A stretch of DNA of 64,000 nucleotides, taken from the NCBI GenBank assembly GCA_964476605.1, contig CAYZBH010000003.1, forward strand, positions 36,849-100,848. Direction: 5' to 3'. The position numbers and the translations under genes are program-made. The stretch comes from an uncultured Thermoanaerobaculia bacterium. GTDB taxonomy: Bacteria; Acidobacteriota; Thermoanaerobaculia; Multivoradales; JAGPDF01. The notes beneath the pieces were generated by a model. The model was given only the letters and a program-made list of their open reading frames with translations. It was not told the DNA's origin and searched no databases. Positions 7,202-19,133 of this stretch are shown here, piece after piece (positions within the stretch are counted from its first letter, which is position 1; the number at the start of each line of letters is the position of its first letter).

Positions 7202-9913
7202 CTACGCCCGCGGCCCCGCCGGGGTTTCGACACCGGCCCGTGCCGCGGCCGGGGTGGCCGCCGGTCCACGCCCGGCCGCGCCCTCGCTCAGCGCGAGGAG
7301 CCGCTCGAGCGAGAAGCCGAGCACTCCCTGCCCGCCGCGCGTCACGACGGTCACCCGGCGCGGCGACCCATAGGCGACCGCGAGGCTCGGACCCGTGTCT
7401 CCGAGGAGCCCCTCGAGCCGACTCACGGCACCCTCGTTCGGCATGCCCGGTGCACCGGGTGCGCGCTGCTCGAGCAGGCTACCGAGCGCGCCGACCGAGT
7501 CGCCGAGATTCTGGTAGGCGACACCCGAGAAGTGGATCTCGCCGTCCTCCGGCAGCAGGTCGACGAAGCGCTGCGAGGCCGGCAGCGTCACCCCCGCGGC
7601 GCGCGTCGCGACCGCCTCGAGGAGGAGCGCCCGGGACGGGCCGACGAGCAGATAGCCGTCGTGGAAGAGCAGGTGGACGAGCTCCCGTCCGTCGCCGGTC
7701 GTGAGCGTGCGTACCACCTGCCCGTCGAGCGCCTCCTGCCGCCAGGCGAGGAGCGGTCGTCCTTCGGCCGCCGCGTCCCGGTTCCAGGCCTCGACGAGCG
7801 TCGCGAGCGTCCCCTGCAGGCGCCCTTCGTCCGCGACCTCCAGCACCAGCTTCCACGCCGGCTCGGGCAACCAGGGGCCGTCGAAGGCGAAGGCGAAGTC
7901 GCCGCCGAGCGTCGCCGCGATGTCCTCGCGGAGCGACAGACCATAAGTCGCCTCGAGCTCGGCCAGATGCGCCAGAGCCCGCGCGTCGTCGCTCGAGACC
8001 AAGGCGAGCAGGTCGTCGAGCATCGTCGACGGCTCCTTGAGGAGGCCGCCGACCGCCAGGTGAGCGTCGGGCGACACGTACTCCAGCGCCCCCACCGGCG
8101 CCGGCTCGGCGAGCCACGAGGCGAGACCCCGGCGATCGTCCGAGAAGGTGACGACCGCACGATTCTGCGTCTCGTCGCCGTTCCCGTGGCTCTCGAGAAT
8201 CAGGTGATCGACCTCGGAGAGTCCGAGCCGGTCGAGAGTCGCTGCCTCCGCGTTGCCCGCGCCCCCGGCGCGCTGGTGGGCCAGCAGGCTCGCGACGTCG
8301 ACGCCCACGAGCCAACTCGTCCCCTCGCCGTAGACCTCGGCCAAGCGGGCATGGAAGGGGGTGGAGACGAAGGGGTTGCCGCCGCCGTCGATCTCACCCT
8401 GGAGGGTCGCGAGGCGCGCTGCGCTCGGCGAGGCGAGCAGGAGGTCTCCCGCCAGCCAGACCAGCAGCTCGTGCGGTCCCGGCTCGCTCTCGGCGCTCGG
8501 ATCGGTGATGCGGCGCACGCGTCCGCCCTCTTCCGCGCTCGCGTTGAGGCGCGCGATCTCCTCGTCGAGCAGCGTGGAGAGACGCGCCGGATCGTTCACT
8601 TCGGCCAGGAAGACCGGCGCTTCCGCCCCCGCGCCAGTGCCCAGGTCGACCGCCACCACGATCTCGGGGCCGAGCTCCGCGCCGAAGCGCCGGATCTCGC
8701 CGAGCGCCTCGGCGATCTCCTGCTGGGCGTTGCCGTCACCGAATCGCTCTTGCCACCACGCGGCGAGCGCCTCGTTCTCGGCCACCCGCTGCTCGACGAT
8801 CTGCCAGGCGTCGGCGAGCGACTGCGAGAGGTTCGGGAGCGCCACGTAGATGCCCGTGCCGGCGGGCGCCAGGTCGAGCAGCCGCGTCGAGTTGCGATTC
8901 GCCACGGCGAGCGTTCGGTCGAGCTCGTGACCGAGCGACTTCAGGGCCGCCAACCGCTCCCGGTAGCGCGCGGCGTCGCGGCTCCAGGAGATCTCCCGCT
9001 CGAGCGGAATCATCGCCAGCCGCGGATTCGTGGTGAGCTGATCGCCGGGACGCAGCACCGCGTGCTGGGCGCCCTGCGCCACCTGGACCTCGCCCGCCAG
9101 GACCGAGACGCGAGATCCCTTGGCGCCATGGTTCACCGAGAAGACGGTGCCGACGACCGAAACCAGACAATCGCCGGTCTCGACGTAGAGATGGCCGCTG
9201 CGCTGCTCGGCGGCCTCGACGATCACGCTGCCGCGAGCGAGCCGGAGCACGGTGCCGTCCCAACGCCGGTCGAGCGAGAGCTCCGAGCGTTCGGCGAGCT
9301 CGACCCGCGTGCCATCCGGCAAGGCGAGGATCGCACCGGAATCCTTGGCGGTACGGACCGCCTGCGCGCGCTCGAGGCGCTCGCCCGCGACCGCGGGTCG
9401 CAGATGCTCGGCGGTCACCAGCACCAGCTCGCCCTGGATCGAGCGCACCTGGGCCGAGACGCTCGCGCCGAGCGGCGCCCAGCCGGAGCGCCAGACCAGC
9501 AGTCCGCCCGCGAGCGCCGCCGCCGCGAGGGTCGCCGCGATCGCCCAGCGCCAGGCGCCGCGCGTCGGGGCCGGGAGCTCCGCCCGTCCGCGGACGGATC
9601 CGCCCTCGCCGCGGCGCGCCGCCGCCAAGGCCTTCCGGCAGCCGAGGCACTCGCGCGAGTGATCCTCGAGCAGCAGGCGCTTGGGCTCCGCCAGCGCCCC
9701 CGCGAGGTAGGCGGGGACGAGGGCGCGGAAGCCCGCGCACCCTTGAATGCGATGGGCCTCCTCGGCCGCGGCGACGGCGCCGGACGGCGACGCGTCGAGC
9801 TCCTCCGTCAGCCGGTTCCAGACCCGGGCACCGGCCGCTTCCACGGTCCCTTCGTCGAGCTTCTCGTCGCGGGTCGCGGCGATGGCGGCGTCGAGCAGTT
9901 CTTCGCGCTTCAT
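7202..9913 (-). CDS. Zn-finger anti-sigma / FecR-domain protein with a very large extracytoplasmic domain
   Basis: N-terminal HSRECLGC (HxxxCxxC), one TM ([19 protein letters not shown]), FecR-like strands ([25 protein letters not shown]), then about 600 aa soluble domain. Directly follows an ECF sigma gene. Confidence 0.8.
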
Positions 9914-12624: not shown

Positions 12625-15039
<2,415 letters not shown>

Positions 15040-15080
15040 CGCCCGGCCGCCCAGAGGCGGCCCGCGCGTGACGTTCGAGA

Positions 15081-15112
15081 GCCCCGGGGCGACCCGGGGC
15101 ATCTTGCTTTTC
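15081..15112 (+). terminator. Intrinsic terminator after hppA
   Basis: 8-bp stem GCCCCGGG/CCCGGGGC with GCGA (GNRA) loop, followed by a pyrimidine-rich tail ATCTTGCTTTTC. Confidence 0.6.
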
Positions 15113-15116
15113 TGAG

Positions 15117-15809
15117 TCAGTCTCGGGCTGGTGAGCTCGCGGCCTTCGCCGCCCATGCCGTCATCTTGCGCTGCAGGGCGATCCGGCTCTCGTCCGTCAG
15201 ACAGGGGTCGGAGTAGATCTCGAGCGCCTGACTGGCGACCCGGAACGCCTCGTCGAACGACCCGCACGCCACCAGAAGCTCCGCCTCCTGCTCGAGCAGG
15301 TCGCCCGCGAAGAGCGGATCGGCGGCCCCGTGCGGCAGGAGCTCCCGGATCCGCTCGTGAAGAAGCGCCGCCTGGAGGAGGTCTCCCCGGCGTCGCTGCG
15401 CGATCGCCAGCACCAGCAGCGCTTCTGCCGGCAGGTCCTCGAGCAGGCGCGATGCTCTCGGCGCCGTCGCCGCGAGTACCATCGCGAGCAGGGCGAGATT
15501 CTCGCCCACCTCCGGTTCCTCGTCGATCAGCGCGCGCGCCCGCTCGACGAGGGCGGAGATGGTGGGCAGATCGGGGAGCGGTTCGAGGAAGGCCCGGGCG
15601 GTAACGCCGTGTTCGCGGACGTGCTCGACCCAGCTCTCGGCGTGCCCCTTCGCGCGCTCGATCTGTTCGAGGAAGCTCCAGTCCGGTTCGTCGATCCCGC
15701 TTCCGCCGCGCGGCCTCCCTTCGGAGTGCGAGGAGCGTTCGGCGAGCCGACGCTCTCGCCGCCTGGCGGCATCGCCCGGTCGACGCAACGAGCGGTCGCG
15801 CATCGTCAC
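15117..15809 (-). CDS. Hypothetical alpha-helical / TPR-like protein
   Basis: 230-aa ORF, AGGA RBS 9 bp after the mod stub stop. Helical repeats EALLVLAIAQRRRGDL, DPLFAGDLLEQEAELL, GSFDEAFRVASQALEIY. Confidence 0.55.
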   Translation of the reverse strand: MTMRDRSLRRPGDAARRRERRLAERSSHSEGRPRGGSGIDEPDWSFLEQIERAKGHAESWVEHVREHGVTARAFLEPLPDLPTISALVERARALIDEEPEVGENLALLAMVLAATAPRASRLLEDLPAEALLVLAIAQRRRGDLLQAALLHERIRELLPHGAADPLFAGDLLEQEAELLVACGSFDEAFRVASQALEIYSDPCLTDESRIALQRKMTAWAAKAASSPARD

Positions 15810-15818
15810 GAGATCATC

Positions 15819-16020
15819 CTAGCCCACGCTCACCGGCACGAGCGTCATGGTGTCGTTGCCGAAGAGGTCGCGCTTCTTGCAGTTCAAAGCGAACCCGACC
15901 TCGCGCTCGTCCTCGGCGAAGAGTGAGCCGTGCTTCTGCGGCGAGGGCGGCCTCCGTTCGCGCGGCGAGATCGCGCTTCTCAGCGTCGGAGAAGTCGTAG
16001 GCGGGCGCCCTGGCACCACG
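15819..16020 (-). pseudogene. Collapsed remnant of a type III R-M-like DNA methyltransferase (Mod): frameshifted N-terminus joined to the C-terminal tail
   Basis: One frame gives AYDFSDAEKRDL. The adjacent frame gives RPPSPQKHGSLFAEDEREVGFALNCK, immediately followed by DLFGNDTMTLVPVSVG*. I recall these as degenerate versions of the N-terminus (SDAEKRDL..GKPLPEKY..LFEDKREV..WNGK) and C-terminus (KVIDIFGNDTM..V.V) of type III-like Mod proteins. No catalytic motifs remain. Confidence 0.7.
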
Positions 16021-16022
16021 GT

Positions 16023-17090
16023 TCAGTCTGCTCGCTTCGACTTGGCCTTGCGAGCCGTCGCCCTCTCCTGCGGCGCCGGAAGAGCCTCCAGCGCTTTCTC
16101 CAAGGCCCGCTCGTCGGCCTCGGCTTCGGTCACGAGTCTCCGGGCGTGGAACTGGTCGTACTCGCCGAGCGCCAGACGGTCGGCGACCTCCTTCGACACC
16201 TTTCCGGGGCTCGTCAATACCTCGCGCTGATTGAATTGGAGGAAGGCGTCCAGCTTCTCGCGCCAGTCCTTCATATAGAGCAAGCGGCGCCGTCGCGCTT
16301 GGTCCTCGGCATACTCGAGATACATCGTAACGATCCGGTTGAGCACCTCGATTTCGCCTTCACCGAGGTAGTTCTTGGCGATCGTCACGTCCGACTTTCG
16401 GACCTTGGCGCCTCTCCAGTTCGTGAGCCCCATGTTCGGCTTCCGGTGGTCGGCGCGCTCGGCGATGAGTTGGGGCGCGGTCTTGCCCGCCGCCGCCCAG
16501 TGCAGCTTGTTCTGGATGATCTGGAAGAACTCGTGGGTCTCCCGGCTCTCCGGCCGGTAGTCCGCCGCGAGCGCGAAAATGTCCCGGATCTTGAGGTACA
16601 TCCTCTTCTCGCTCGATCGGATGTCTCGGATCCGCTCGAGGAGCTCGTCGAAGTAGTCGGGAGCACCGTGCCCGGGCGGGTTCTTCAGGCGCTCGTCGTC
16701 CATCGTGAAGCCCTTGACGAGGTATTCGGAGAGCCGGCTGGTCGCCCACTGGCGAAACGCCGTTCCACGCTCCGAACGCACCCGGTAGCCCACGGCAAGG
16801 ACCATGTCGAGGTTGTAGTGCTTGACCGCTCGGCGGACCTGCCGGGAGCCCTCAGGTCGAACTACTAAGTAATCCTTAATTGTTGCCTCGGCCTGCAACT
16901 CGTTCTCTTCCAGTACGTTCCGGATGTGCTGGACCACGTTTGGAACACTCGTCTGGAACAGCTCTGCAATCTGGGCCTGGGATAGCCAGAGGGATCCCAG
17001 GTCGAATCGGACTTGGATCCGCGTGCGTCCGTCCTCGGCTTGATAGAGGATCAACTCCCCGCGGGGTTCAGACGCTCGATTCATGCTCAC
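16023..17090 (-). CDS. rhuM: RhuM family (so-called virulence RhuM) DNA-binding protein, intact
   Basis: ILYQAEDGRTRIQV, WLSQAQIAELFQ, YNLDMVLAVGYRVRS..GTAFRQWAT, KGFTMDDERLK, DYFDELLERIRDIRSSEKRMY, QNKLHWA, AKNYL. GTG 17090 or ATG 17084. Visibly more AT-rich than the flanks. Confidence 0.92.
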   Translation of the reverse strand: MSMNRASEPRGELILYQAEDGRTRIQVRFDLGSLWLSQAQIAELFQTSVPNVVQHIRNVLEENELQAEATIKDYLVVRPEGSRQVRRAVKHYNLDMVLAVGYRVRSERGTAFRQWATSRLSEYLVKGFTMDDERLKNPPGHGAPDYFDELLERIRDIRSSEKRMYLKIRDIFALAADYRPESRETHEFFQIIQNKLHWAAAGKTAPQLIAERADHRKPNMGLTNWRGAKVRKSDVTIAKNYLGEGEIEVLNRIVTMYLEYAEDQARRRRLLYMKDWREKLDAFLQFNQREVLTSPGKVSKEVADRLALGEYDQFHARRLVTEAEADERALEKALEALPAPQERATARKAKSKRAD

Positions 17091-17212
17091 GGTTGGTTCT
17101 CCCCGAATTTCTCATGGGAGCTCTTCCGCAAGGTCTCATCCGCGGGAAGCCACCGGTGTTCCGGCCGGAGGAGCTCGTAAGGCGAGCGCGGGAAGTCGGG
17201 GTGGAGCGCCAT
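17087..17212 (-). pseudogene. N-terminal stub (41 aa) of a type III restriction enzyme Res-like helicase (not in ORF track)
   Basis: Hand-translated MALHPDFPRSPYELLRPEHRWLPADETLRKSSHEKFGENQP*, with GGAGG upstream. Matches the N-terminus I recall for type III Res family proteins (MALHPDFP.SP...L.P..RW.PADE.LR..S.EK). Stop overlaps the rhuM GTG. Confidence 0.75.
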
Positions 17213-17370
17213 CGTCGAGGTTAGACCTCCGCTTGCCGGGCTCTATCCGGAGTCGCTTCGTGGGGCTGCCACCGGCTCGGTGTCGGGCCGCGTCAGCGTC
17301 GAGTGCCCCTGAAGATCCGGCGACCAGAGCATAGCGGGGTCCGCCTCCGGTCGGAAGTCTCGCGCCTAGG

Positions 17371-18792
17371 CTAGGCGGAGGCCTCCGCCCGCGCGCGGAG
17401 GGTCGCCAAGTGGGTGCTCTCGAGGGTGTCGCGGTAGAAGAGGTTGTAGGTGTCGAAGGGGATGAGGCGCCCGTCCTCGGGGTGGACGATGTGGACGCAG
17501 CTCTTCTTGACCGAGCGGACGTCGAAGGCGTGCGCGTCGATGAACTGGACGATCAGGATCCGGAAGAGGTTCGCGTAGCCGAGCTCGGCGGGCACCTGCA
17601 CGGTGGGCAGGCAGCAGAGCAGGTCCTTCAAGGTCGCCGCGCTCGACTCCGGCGAGTGGTTGGTGGCGAAGAGCTTGAAGAGCCCCTCGCGGACCGCCGG
17701 GTCGCGCTCGTAGACGATCGAGTTGCGCCCCCCCTCGATCAGCACCTGCGGGTCGATCATGCCGGTGAGCGGCACCACGCGGCCGCCGAGCTTCAGCGCG
17801 TAGGCCATCGCCAGCGAATCCGGATGGCAGGGGACGGGGATCAGGTCCTCCGGCCGGAAGCGGTCGCTCTGCTCGAGGATCCGCCGCCGTACCTCGGTCA
17901 ACGTCAGGCGGTGGCGGGCCGGGTCGTACCCCTCGACCCTGCCGGCGTCCTGCACCGGCTGGAAGGTCACGCCGCGGACGCAGCCGATCGAGAGCGCGTA
18001 CTCGACGATCGCGCCGAGCTCGTCGTCGTTCGCCCCCCGCGCGACGGTCACGACGAGGGTGGTCGAGATCCCGAGCCGGTCGAGGCGCGCGAGCGCCCGC
18101 TCGCGGATCTTCCGGAGGTCGGCACCTCGGAGCGCGAGGAGCGGCTCGCGCCGGAGCGAGTCGAATTGCAGGTAGATCTCGAAGCCCGGAGCGTACCCGG
18201 CGAGCCGTTTCGCGAACTCCTCGTCCTCCGCGATCCGCACGCCGTTGGTGTTGACCATGAGGTGGCGGATCGGCCGGCGCTTCGCGGCATCGAGGATGGC
18301 GAAGAAGTTGGGATGGATCGTCGGCTCGCCCCCCGAGATCTGGACGACGTCGGGCTCGAGCTCGTTGCGGACCACGGCGTCGAGCATGCGCTCGACCTCG
18401 GCCAGGCTCCGCATCTCCGGGCGGTGCGGTCCGCTCGCCGCGTAGCAGACCGGACAGGCGAGATTGCAGGCGTCGTTGATCTCGATCAGGGTGAGGCAGG
18501 AGTGCTGCTCGTGGTCGGGGCAGAGGCCGCAGTCGTACGGGCACCCCCAGCGGATCGGCGTGTTGTAGCGCGCCGGCATCTCGGGCGCCTTGAGGAAGAC
18601 CTCGCGCGCGCGCCGGTAGTAGTCGACGTCGTCGGCCACCAGCACGCGCTCGAAGCCGTGCTCGGGGCAGCGCTTGTCGAGGTAGACGTTCTCCTCCTCG
18701 AAGAGGATCTTCCCCTCGACCTTCCGGTGGCAGACCGAGCAGATCGAGATCGCGACGTCGTAGAAGAGGTAGGGGCGGGTGCGCGGCGCCAC
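17371..18792 (-). CDS. Radical SAM protein of the tetraether lipid synthase (Tes/GDGT-MAS, MJ0619)-like family
   Basis: N-terminal CSVC...CPEH (rubredoxin-like site), GCPYDCGLCPDH (auxiliary cluster), CNLACPVC (SAM cluster), QISGGEPT, NTNG, YLQFD, RGVTFQPV, FIDAHAFDVRSVKKSCVH, IPFDTYN. GTG start with GGAGG. Confidence 0.85.
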   Translation of the reverse strand: MAPRTRPYLFYDVAISICSVCHRKVEGKILFEEENVYLDKRCPEHGFERVLVADDVDYYRRAREVFLKAPEMPARYNTPIRWGCPYDCGLCPDHEQHSCLTLIEINDACNLACPVCYAASGPHRPEMRSLAEVERMLDAVVRNELEPDVVQISGGEPTIHPNFFAILDAAKRRPIRHLMVNTNGVRIAEDEEFAKRLAGYAPGFEIYLQFDSLRREPLLALRGADLRKIRERALARLDRLGISTTLVVTVARGANDDELGAIVEYALSIGCVRGVTFQPVQDAGRVEGYDPARHRLTLTEVRRRILEQSDRFRPEDLIPVPCHPDSLAMAYALKLGGRVVPLTGMIDPQVLIEGGRNSIVYERDPAVREGLFKLFATNHSPESSAATLKDLLCCLPTVQVPAELGYANLFRILIVQFIDAHAFDVRSVKKSCVHIVHPEDGRLIPFDTYNLFYRDTLESTHLATLRARAEASA

Positions 18793-18794
18793 GC

Positions 18795-19133
18795 TCAGCC
18801 TCCGGGGGGCGGCGGCGGGGCGCTCTCGGGCGGGCTCGCCGCCACCTGCCGGTCGGCGCGCGAGCGCGTCTTCACCAGGCCGACGATCCACCAGATGAAT
18901 CCGACCGGAAGCGCGAGCGCACCCAGGACGAAGAGCGCGCCGCAGCAGAAGCCCAGGATGTCGGCTCCGGCGCGGCTCGGACCACCGCTGAAGTCGAGAG
19001 TGAGGAGGAAGCCGAAGCAACCCGAGACGCCGAGCAGCACCCCGGCGACGGCGATCAGGCACCCTGGCGCCCAGGGCTTGTCGCGGGCGAGCGCTCGCAA
19101 CCTTCCCATCGGTTGAGACCCTCCGTCAGCCAT
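18795..19133 (-). CDS. Small Cys-containing membrane protein with a lipobox-like motif
   Basis: Two hydrophobic segments, LLGVSGC lipobox-like, GFCC in the second helix. Overlaps the lgt-like gene and ends 2 bp before the rSAM start. Confidence 0.7.
   Translation of the reverse strand: MADGGSQPMGRLRALARDKPWAPGCLIAVAGVLLGVSGCFGFLLTLDFSGGPSRAGADILGFCCGALFVLGALALPVGFIWWIVGLVKTRSRADRQVAASPPESAPPPPPGG

Follow-up and report, generated by a model that had tools for sequence, protein, structure and literature searches.

An intact rhuM gene between the ends of res and mod: a probable remnant of a type III-like restriction-modification operon in an activated-sludge Thermoanaerobaculia bacterium

The DNA analyzed here is a window of 64,000 nucleotides (nt) from an uncultured Thermoanaerobaculia bacterium of activated sludge (GenBank assembly GCA_964476605.1, contig CAYZBH010000003.1, positions 36,849 to 100,848), and all coordinates refer to this 64-kb window unless another locus is named. 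Between positions 15,819 and 17,212 it carries, all on the minus strand, a short remnant of a res gene, an intact rhuM gene and a short remnant of a mod gene, res and mod being the two genes of type III-like restriction-modification (R-M) loci. An earlier note on this DNA, made from the sequence alone, had described a 41-codon open reading frame (ORF), rhuM and a Mod-like segment here, and this layout was borne out in its positions and its strand.

The res remnant is the 41-codon ORF at 17212-17087, which translates as MALHPDFPRSPYELLRPEHRWLPADETLRKSSHEKFGENQP and ends in a TGA that overlaps the GTG start of rhuM by 4 nt (GTGA). A GGAGG motif lies 13 nt 5' of its ATG. Residues 1-35 align with the N-terminal end of Res-like DEAD/DEAH proteins in the PLSDB plasmids (tblastn, 7.3 Gb); the 41-residue peptide hits a Res encoded by an Aminobacter plasmid (E=1e-7) and the equivalent position of Sinorhizobium pSMED02. 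In addition, Res and Mod profiles were built from nine intact family loci and searched against 1,175 six-frame segments of the window, and the sole significant match of the Res profile was this ORF (E=1.4e-14, profile positions 1-36 of 902). The peptide found only itself in a collection of 5.8 billion proteins, whose word index is too coarse for peptides of this length. Its last six codons correspond to the 3' end of res. They read TTC GGG GAG AAC CAA CCG TGA with the stop, against TTC CGG GAG TAC CAG AAA TGA in the related locus L172, and they also align with the res end of L168, the intact relative used for comparison throughout. Res proteins of the family end in F-x-[EDGA]-[YF]-[KQR]-x, either at the stop or with up to four extra residues. 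The junction between the res 5' stub and the res 3' end lies at 17108/17107. The Shine-Dalgarno sequence of rhuM, GGGGAG (17104-17099), is inside the six surviving res codons, and the res deletion ends 3 nt before it. Compared with codons 1-35 of L168, 5 of 34 residues of the stub are changed, and the ratio of nonsynonymous to synonymous substitution rates (dN/dS) is 0.06. The changes F22L and Y33H hit positions that do not vary among the aligned Res N-termini, nine from subfamily B and four from A2.

The gene between the two remnants encodes a protein of 355 amino acids that matches Pfam Virulence_RhuM (PF13310) with E=5e-113 and 376.9 bits against a cutoff of 33.7 (positions 1-248 of 252). 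It also matches the PADLOC model PDC-S05 over its full length (PDLC04852, positions 1-337 of 346, E=3e-153). The GTG start and the ATG at which rhuM begins in the intact relatives are orthologous, and the gene is colinear with that of L168 without gaps, at 87.3% DNA and 89% amino acid identity (40 of 354 residues changed). With no gap or stop over 355 codons and a dN/dS of 0.13, rhuM appears to be under purifying selection. For RhuM-like genes found within R-M operons, a role as toxins of multi-layer defence loci has been predicted, and a protein-modifying toxin was proposed for the family from fusions to DOC domains (PMC3710099).

The mod remnant is a segment of about 200 nt (16022-15819) that begins three nt past the rhuM stop and ends in DLFGNDTMTLVPVSVG at the stop at 15819. 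In one frame it encodes AYDFSDAEKRDL, which corresponds to Mod residues 6-17. After a frameshift it encodes PQKHGSLFAEDEREVGFALNCKKRD, residues 28-52, and these are fused directly to LFGNDTMTLVPVSVG, the last 14-15 residues of Mod before the stop. This segment was the best match of the Mod profile in the window (E=1e-4 for the segment as a whole). Profile positions 26-54 and 748-771 of 771 match it separately, and positions 6-22 give a third, weak match in another frame. The last 16 residues match the extreme end of the methyltransferase adjoining Res on the Aminobacter plasmid, and the Mod proteins of the family end in DIFGNDTMTLVPV[TN]VG at the stop. The frame-1 peptide of the remnant gave no match in the plasmids. 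A 66-codon ORF from the GTG at 16019 was rejected as an accidental reading; its first ~23 codons are outside the Mod frame, and the orthologous Mod start codon is now GGT.

Decay of the mod remnant is uneven. Relative to L168, the start codon is lost (ATG to GGT at 16017-16015) and a 5-nt deletion shifts the frame near 15950. Codons 28-52 have 13 of 25 residues changed (dN/dS 0.64), including the invariant W and G of WNGK, now LNCK, while a single residue is changed in codons 6-17 (1 of 12, dN/dS 0.11) and in the last 13 codons (1 of 13, dN/dS 0.11). Judged by codons 28-52, the 5' part has decayed significantly further than the res stub (13 of 25 residues against 5 of 34, Fisher p=0.004). A segment of about 40 nt at the mod 3' end is highly conserved in DNA across many organisms; it shows loose ends and depth spikes at 15831-15870, and it attracts foreign contigs in DNA and RNA runs. 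The strong preservation of the mod 3' stub is at least partly due to this conservation.

Intact counterparts of the locus exist. The closest RhuM proteins in a large protein collection are 90%, 89% and 83% identical to that of the window, and each of them sits between a ResIII protein of ~906-920 amino acids and an N6_N4_Mtase protein. The order res (920 amino acids)-rhuM-mod (773 amino acids) is complete in L168 and L169; in L170-L172 and a JGI contig, one or both R-M genes are cut by the contig end, and the gene order is the same. In these relatives the rhuM ATG overlaps the res TGA by 4 nt (ATGA), mod starts 5 nt past the rhuM stop, and in L168-L172 mod follows rhuM directly with no extra stub. 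The window keeps this tight same-strand geometry, with GTGA in place of ATGA. Its homology with L168 runs from the res ATG to the mod stop and is interrupted by only two gaps. The res gap spans 2,637 nt (879 codons, L168 codons 36-914) and the mod gap 2,121 nt (707 codons, L168 codons 53-759), and both are divisible by three and in frame. Window positions 16017-15867 correspond to mod codons 1-52 (75% DNA identity) and 15866-15819 to the last ~15 mod codons. In L168 the Res motifs GSGKT (143), DEAH (296) and PDFLV..IETKG (~843-865) and the Mod motifs DPPF (131) before FCGSG (396) all lie in the deleted intervals. Thus the window locus encodes no functional Res or Mod, and the system can therefore neither restrict nor methylate.

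Short repeats were found at both junctions. At the mod junction, the 5' breakpoint of L168 (..CGGGAC|GTC) and its 3' breakpoint (..ATCGAC|CTG) end in GGAC and CGAC, and the blastn segments on either side share positions 15870-15863. The res junction is flanked by imperfect 12-nt repeats, which agree at 9 of 12 positions in L168. Taken together, these data uphold the picture in the earlier note, in which the 41-codon ORF begins like a Res, a frameshifted Mod-like N-terminus is joined to a Mod-like C-terminus, and two separate large internal deletions took the cores out of a type III-like res-rhuM-mod operon but kept the gene ends. The Res match was obtained by tblastn and by profile, the Mod remnant gave two separate profile matches and carries the family C-terminus, the two gaps were delimited, and the gene order is that around the closest RhuM proteins. 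The alignment to an intact relative and the mapping of breakpoints and microhomologies, both proposed in that note, were carried out on L168. The features are collected in Table 1.

Table 1. Features of the remnant locus and its immediate surroundings in the window
Feature	Coordinates	Strand	Remarks
Radical-SAM gene	17371-19062	minus	Stop at 17371, 158 nt before the res remnant ATG
Intergenic region, presumed promoter and ribosome-binding site	17213-17370	minus	From the end of the radical-SAM gene to the start of the res remnant
res 5' stub: start codon and codons 1-35	17108-17212	minus	82% DNA and 30/35 amino acid identity to L168, gapless
res 3' end: last six codons (FGENQP) and TGA	17087-17107	minus	Overlaps the rhuM start; holds the rhuM Shine-Dalgarno sequence
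Intact rhuM, 355 amino acids, GTG start	16023-17090	minus	Pfam RhuM and PADLOC PDC-S05
mod 5' remnant, codons 1-52	15867-16022	minus	75% DNA identity to L168 6018-6173, with indels
mod deletion junction, 4-nt microhomology CGAC	15867-15870	minus	Common to both breakpoints
mod 3' stub: last ~15 codons (LFGNDTMTLVPVSVG) and stop	15819-15866	minus	39 nt 95% identical to L168 8291-8329
Orphan 230-codon ORF (p230)	15117-15809	minus	Directly after the mod stop

The collapsed structure was also recovered in other data. Over the stub-rhuM-stub region, five Logan contigs, each from a different run, agree in every base, and at least 14 activated-sludge, wastewater and plastisphere runs hold most 31-mers of the locus. 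In four runs from four studies, contigs span 14800-17459 at flat depth (10x, 21x, ~20x and ~5x), and no alternative joint at 17108 or 15868 was present in the contigs of these four runs. Strain variants in two runs differ by ~0.4%, by single-nucleotide polymorphisms (SNPs) only, and have the same collapsed structure, which is common to strain variants from several plants. Therefore, the collapse predates that strain divergence and is not an artefact of assembly; the check for a misassembly suggested in the earlier note found none. A joint that skips 2,024 nt (15546 to 17571, run X10), and would delete the remnant entirely along with portions of the two flanking genes, occurs in one contig with a 24-nt side and is probably a chance match.

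The assignment of the operon to type III is based on the genes of its intact relatives. In L168 and L031, Mod is a beta-class N6/N4 methyltransferase in which a long region separates DPPF from the FxGxG that follows it, and Res combines superfamily 2 (SF2) helicase motifs with a C-terminal PD-(D/E)xK motif. The intact Mod of L031 matches Pfam N6_N4_Mtase (4e-38) and PADLOC MTase_III (2.3e-108), and the intact Res matches Pfam ResIII (1.4e-11) and PADLOC REase_III (1.8e-23), both partially. Scanning contigs with an alignment of Res N-termini yielded a family set of 80 metagenome loci (L088-L167), which fall into two subfamilies with the gene order mod-to-res or res-to-mod. The stubs of the window resemble the res-to-mod subfamily, whose Mod begins ..YELTDAEKRDL.. 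and ends in DIFGNDTMTLVPVTVG before the stop.

Members of this family as a rule carry accessory genes between their two R-M genes. All 12 res-to-mod loci with both genes intact and visible have an insert of 0.7-2.5 kb between them, and so do about half of the mod-to-res loci (examples are L094 5380-6645, L150 4920-7182, L166 5482-7290 and L098 8266-10001). By Pfam, the cargo includes Schlafen/AlbA_2 proteins with HATPase_c_4, DUF3800 proteins, ParA-like ATPases and four-helix proteins similar to 23S-rRNA IVP; further inserts, judging by the appearance of their sequences, resemble HEPN/MNT pairs, KilA-N or DinD proteins. The start of a cargo gene usually touches or overlaps the stop of the R-M gene before it. 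Similarly, toxin and defence genes, RhuM included, have been found embedded in R-M operons (PMC3710099, PMC9881135). rhuM was also seen in other arrangements. In a more distant type III-like family (e.g., Prosthecobacter fluviatilis), a rhuM ~60% identical to that of the window stands in the order mod-rhuM-res (L004 8265-12477, L023 119-4485), and the order in L031 is res-mod-rhuM. Thus, rhuM has entered type III loci at several positions. A circular permutation or rearrangement had been considered from early intact loci with mod-to-res (L001, L002) or res-mod-rhuM (L031) order, and it was dropped once res-cargo-mod loci and intact res-rhuM-mod operons were found.

Two further loci carry additional, degenerate mod ends. 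In L131, a stub of the Mod N-terminus (52% identity, residues 1-63) occupies 13126-13422; it lies between res and a gene for a 579-residue ATPase, upstream of a full mod. L168 has a second mod 3' end (9626-9675, ending in AIDLFGIDAMALVPANVS at the stop) after an NfeD-like gene, downstream of its full mod. Such extra decayed mod ends beside cargo suggest that cargo is gained or exchanged by recombination at conserved mod ends.

Truncation or collapse was observed in about 8 of the 80 related loci. L117 has an in-frame internal res deletion that joins res 1-87 to 785-903, and L129 has an internally deleted mod together with a truncated res. Res 1-171 is fused to mod 265-777 in L120 and res 1-256 to mod 683-778 in L124, both of them out-of-frame fusions, and L127, L128 and L157 are isolated res N-terminal stubs. 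A single deletion that begins within res and extends into mod has left L120 and L124 without a slot gene. The earlier note had called the disarming of the locus unusually clean. This was overstated, as the frequency of similar loci, the lost mod start, the 5-nt frameshift and the 13 of 25 changed residues in codons 28-52 demonstrate. The window stands out in that its two separate deletions left the cargo gene and the signals for its translation intact.

Our results indicate that the locus is, with high probability, the remnant of a horizontally acquired type III-like res-rhuM-mod operon that was gutted by two in-frame deletions while rhuM was kept. The homology, the breakpoints, the reading frames, the intact relatives and the occurrence in several assemblies are established by the data; what we infer is the present expression of rhuM, its coupling to the res remnant, the sequence of the events and the reason for selection. 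In the ancestral operon, the two R-M genes flanked a slot for a variable accessory gene, here rhuM, with the slot start on or next to the upstream stop. Two separate deletions, which probably arose through slippage or illegitimate recombination at short imperfect repeats, took out res codons 36-914 and mod codons 53-759, and with them the motifs for the SF2 helicase, the PD-(D/E)xK nuclease and the methyltransferase. They left untouched rhuM, the Shine-Dalgarno sequence within the last six res codons and the 4-nt stop/start overlap. Type III enzymes (EcoP15I-type, phase-variable mod genes) need Mod for recognition, and their cleavage is ATP-dependent and needs two inversely oriented unmethylated sites. 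mod was probably hit first and res later, because type III Mod is needed for both recognition and cleavage, so that its loss would disarm the system without self-restriction; the heavier decay of the mod 5' part, compared with the res stub, would fit this order.

RhuM is probably still made, from a promoter upstream of 17212 that is presumed to lie in the intergenic region, and the res mini-ORF may still bring ribosomes to the overlapping GTG. RhuM would then be kept by selection as a stand-alone defence or toxin-type gene, and the locus can be read as such a defence gene in the shell of its former R-M carrier. A wider proposal, offered tentatively as rather doubtful, is that the mini-ORF was kept open and in frame, with the six last res codons and their rhuM Shine-Dalgarno sequence, because translation of the slot gene depends on upstream ribosomes. 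The family would then provide a translationally coupled slot for interchangeable defence genes, passengers would outlive their carrier, and R-M collapse might be a recurrent route to single-gene defences. The res stub, with its dN/dS of 0.06, is better preserved than the mod remnant, which fits the idea of a retained mini-ORF.

Several observations weigh against this history, and some of them would suit a rival in which the same two deletions took place without selection, the clean ends, the frames and the overlap arose by chance, and rhuM is the next gene to be lost. Without selection, two deletions would both be in frame with a chance of about 1 in 9. Decay is frequent in the family (L117, L120, L124, L127, L128, L129, L157), and the other decayed loci include out-of-frame fusions (L120, L124). 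The rhuM SNPs between strain variants are 3 non-synonymous and 3 synonymous and by themselves show no constraint. Expression of rhuM is unsupported by the metatranscriptome contigs on the region, which are only short stretches common to other organisms, apart from one 170-nt piece in p230, and a sigma-70 consensus scan upstream of the res remnant found no promoter. The microhomologies at the junctions are only indicative, because L168 is ~13% divergent from the window. In addition, decay within mod is patchy, heavy at 15867-15941 and nearly absent at 15819-15866 and 15964-16002, and a simple clock in which mod died first fails to explain this pattern. However, rhuM is free of gaps and stops at a dN/dS of 0.13, whereas the adjacent mod has lost its start and its frame and reaches 0.64, and the res deletion ends 3 nt before the rhuM Shine-Dalgarno sequence. 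While the single res-into-mod deletions of L120 and L124 left no slot gene, here two separate deletions stop short of rhuM, and strain variants from several plants have the collapsed form in common. Thus, decay without selection is unlikely, though it retains appreciable weight.

A second rival is a composite origin of the mod remnant: cargo exchange would have left an old, decayed mod 5' stub, and a later deletion would have fused this stub to the 3' end of another mod, intact and located further downstream. Both kinds of extra mod end are known from the relatives, the N-terminal stub upstream of a full mod in L131 and the second 3' end in L168, and decay in codons 28-52 is far heavier than in the mod 3' stub. 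However, codons 6-17 are nearly unchanged, unlike an old stub, and in the closest relatives mod follows rhuM without any extra stub. The conservation of the 40-nt 3' segment is community-wide, so its preservation needs no special history. We therefore consider a composite mod remnant improbable. That an assembler collapsed an intact 6-kb operon at repeats has a negligible chance of being true, since the locus assemblies gave this idea no support, the five Logan contigs agree across both junctions, and the contigs of the four runs cross them at flat depth with no alternative joints and with the same structure in SNP variants.

The preferred reading, a decayed res-rhuM-mod operon with rhuM kept, relates the locus to several known systems. 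Decayed R-M loci are frequent in Helicobacter, Neisseria and many other genomes, and orphan methyltransferases are thought to arise by such decay. The locus resembles them in its internal deletions, frameshift, start-codon loss and short-repeat junctions; it differs in that both genes are cut to their two ends with no orphan methyltransferase, and in that an embedded third gene is intact. Compared with type III R-M systems such as EcoP15I and EcoP1I, the intact relatives have the same beta-class Mod (DPPF before FxGxG) and a Res of ~900 amino acids with GSGKT, DEAH and PD..ExK. In contrast to the usual mod-to-res order, which the sister subfamily keeps, this subfamily is res-to-mod, and an accessory gene normally stands between the two genes of the family. 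The Res matches to PADLOC and Pfam are partial, and the type is assigned from the gene sequences. The window keeps only 35+6 res codons and ~52+15 mod codons, so it encodes no such system.

The locus is also similar to R-M loci with embedded accessory genes such as PrrC, Fic/DOC or RhuM in type I hsd, with its RhuM gene between R-M subunit genes (PMC3710099; type I loci, PMC9881135). The cargo types of the family (Schlafen/AlbA_2 and DUF3800, and HEPN/MNT- and DinD-like proteins by appearance) are the usual ones. The difference is that the carrier here is type III-like and not type I, and that it is gutted while the passenger survives. The full-length match of the window rhuM to PDC-S05 places it beside a system of which one member, a RhuM-domain gene, protected E. 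coli on its own, reducing T7 and T5 plating ~1000-fold and T4 plating ~10-fold (PMC12881386).

The G+C content is 0.59-0.65 in rhuM and 0.68-0.73 in the flanks, and the 160 nt upstream of the res ATG are unrelated to the region upstream of L168 res (46% identity). The p230 ORF is coding-like in its G+C at the three codon positions (GC1/2/3 0.78/0.50/0.86). It has no homologue in any related locus or in the 5.8-billion-protein collection, and Pfam gave sub-threshold TPR hints only. Its membership in the operon was tested and rejected for lack of a homologue in related loci, and p230 is regarded as an orphan neighbour that may be co-transcribed with the remnant; the 170-nt metatranscriptome contig lies inside it. 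A convergent H+-pyrophosphatase gene shares a terminator-like hairpin with p230. At this hairpin (15040-15055), strain variants (L084, run X11) have five G<->C or A>G changes in 16 nt of a GC-rich stem region and identical neighbouring sequence, and these clustered changes may be compensatory in the terminator stem. On the other side of the locus, the radical-SAM protein carries at its N-terminus a zinc ribbon of the HMPTM type. Among NCBIfam models it fits TrsS and the tetraether lipid synthase Tes best, though neither match reaches the curated cutoffs (294 and 255 bits), and it is a putative bacterial Tes/TrsS-like enzyme.

The locus is an ordinary case of two established phenomena, R-M decay and R-M-embedded accessory genes, and the findings in this activated-sludge bacterium overturn no current view. 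It provides a clean worked example, in which comparison with an intact relative places the two breakpoints of a collapsed R-M operon to the nucleotide. It also documents a widespread type III-like family that occurs in res-to-mod and mod-to-res versions and has a regular intergenic slot for varied accessory defence genes. The useful inference concerns RhuM (PADLOC PDC-S05), which would be kept independently of its R-M carrier. Two deletions that stop just short of rhuM and its ribosome-binding site are natural evidence that the gene is worth keeping without its R-M partners, which agrees with the published test of PDC-S05.

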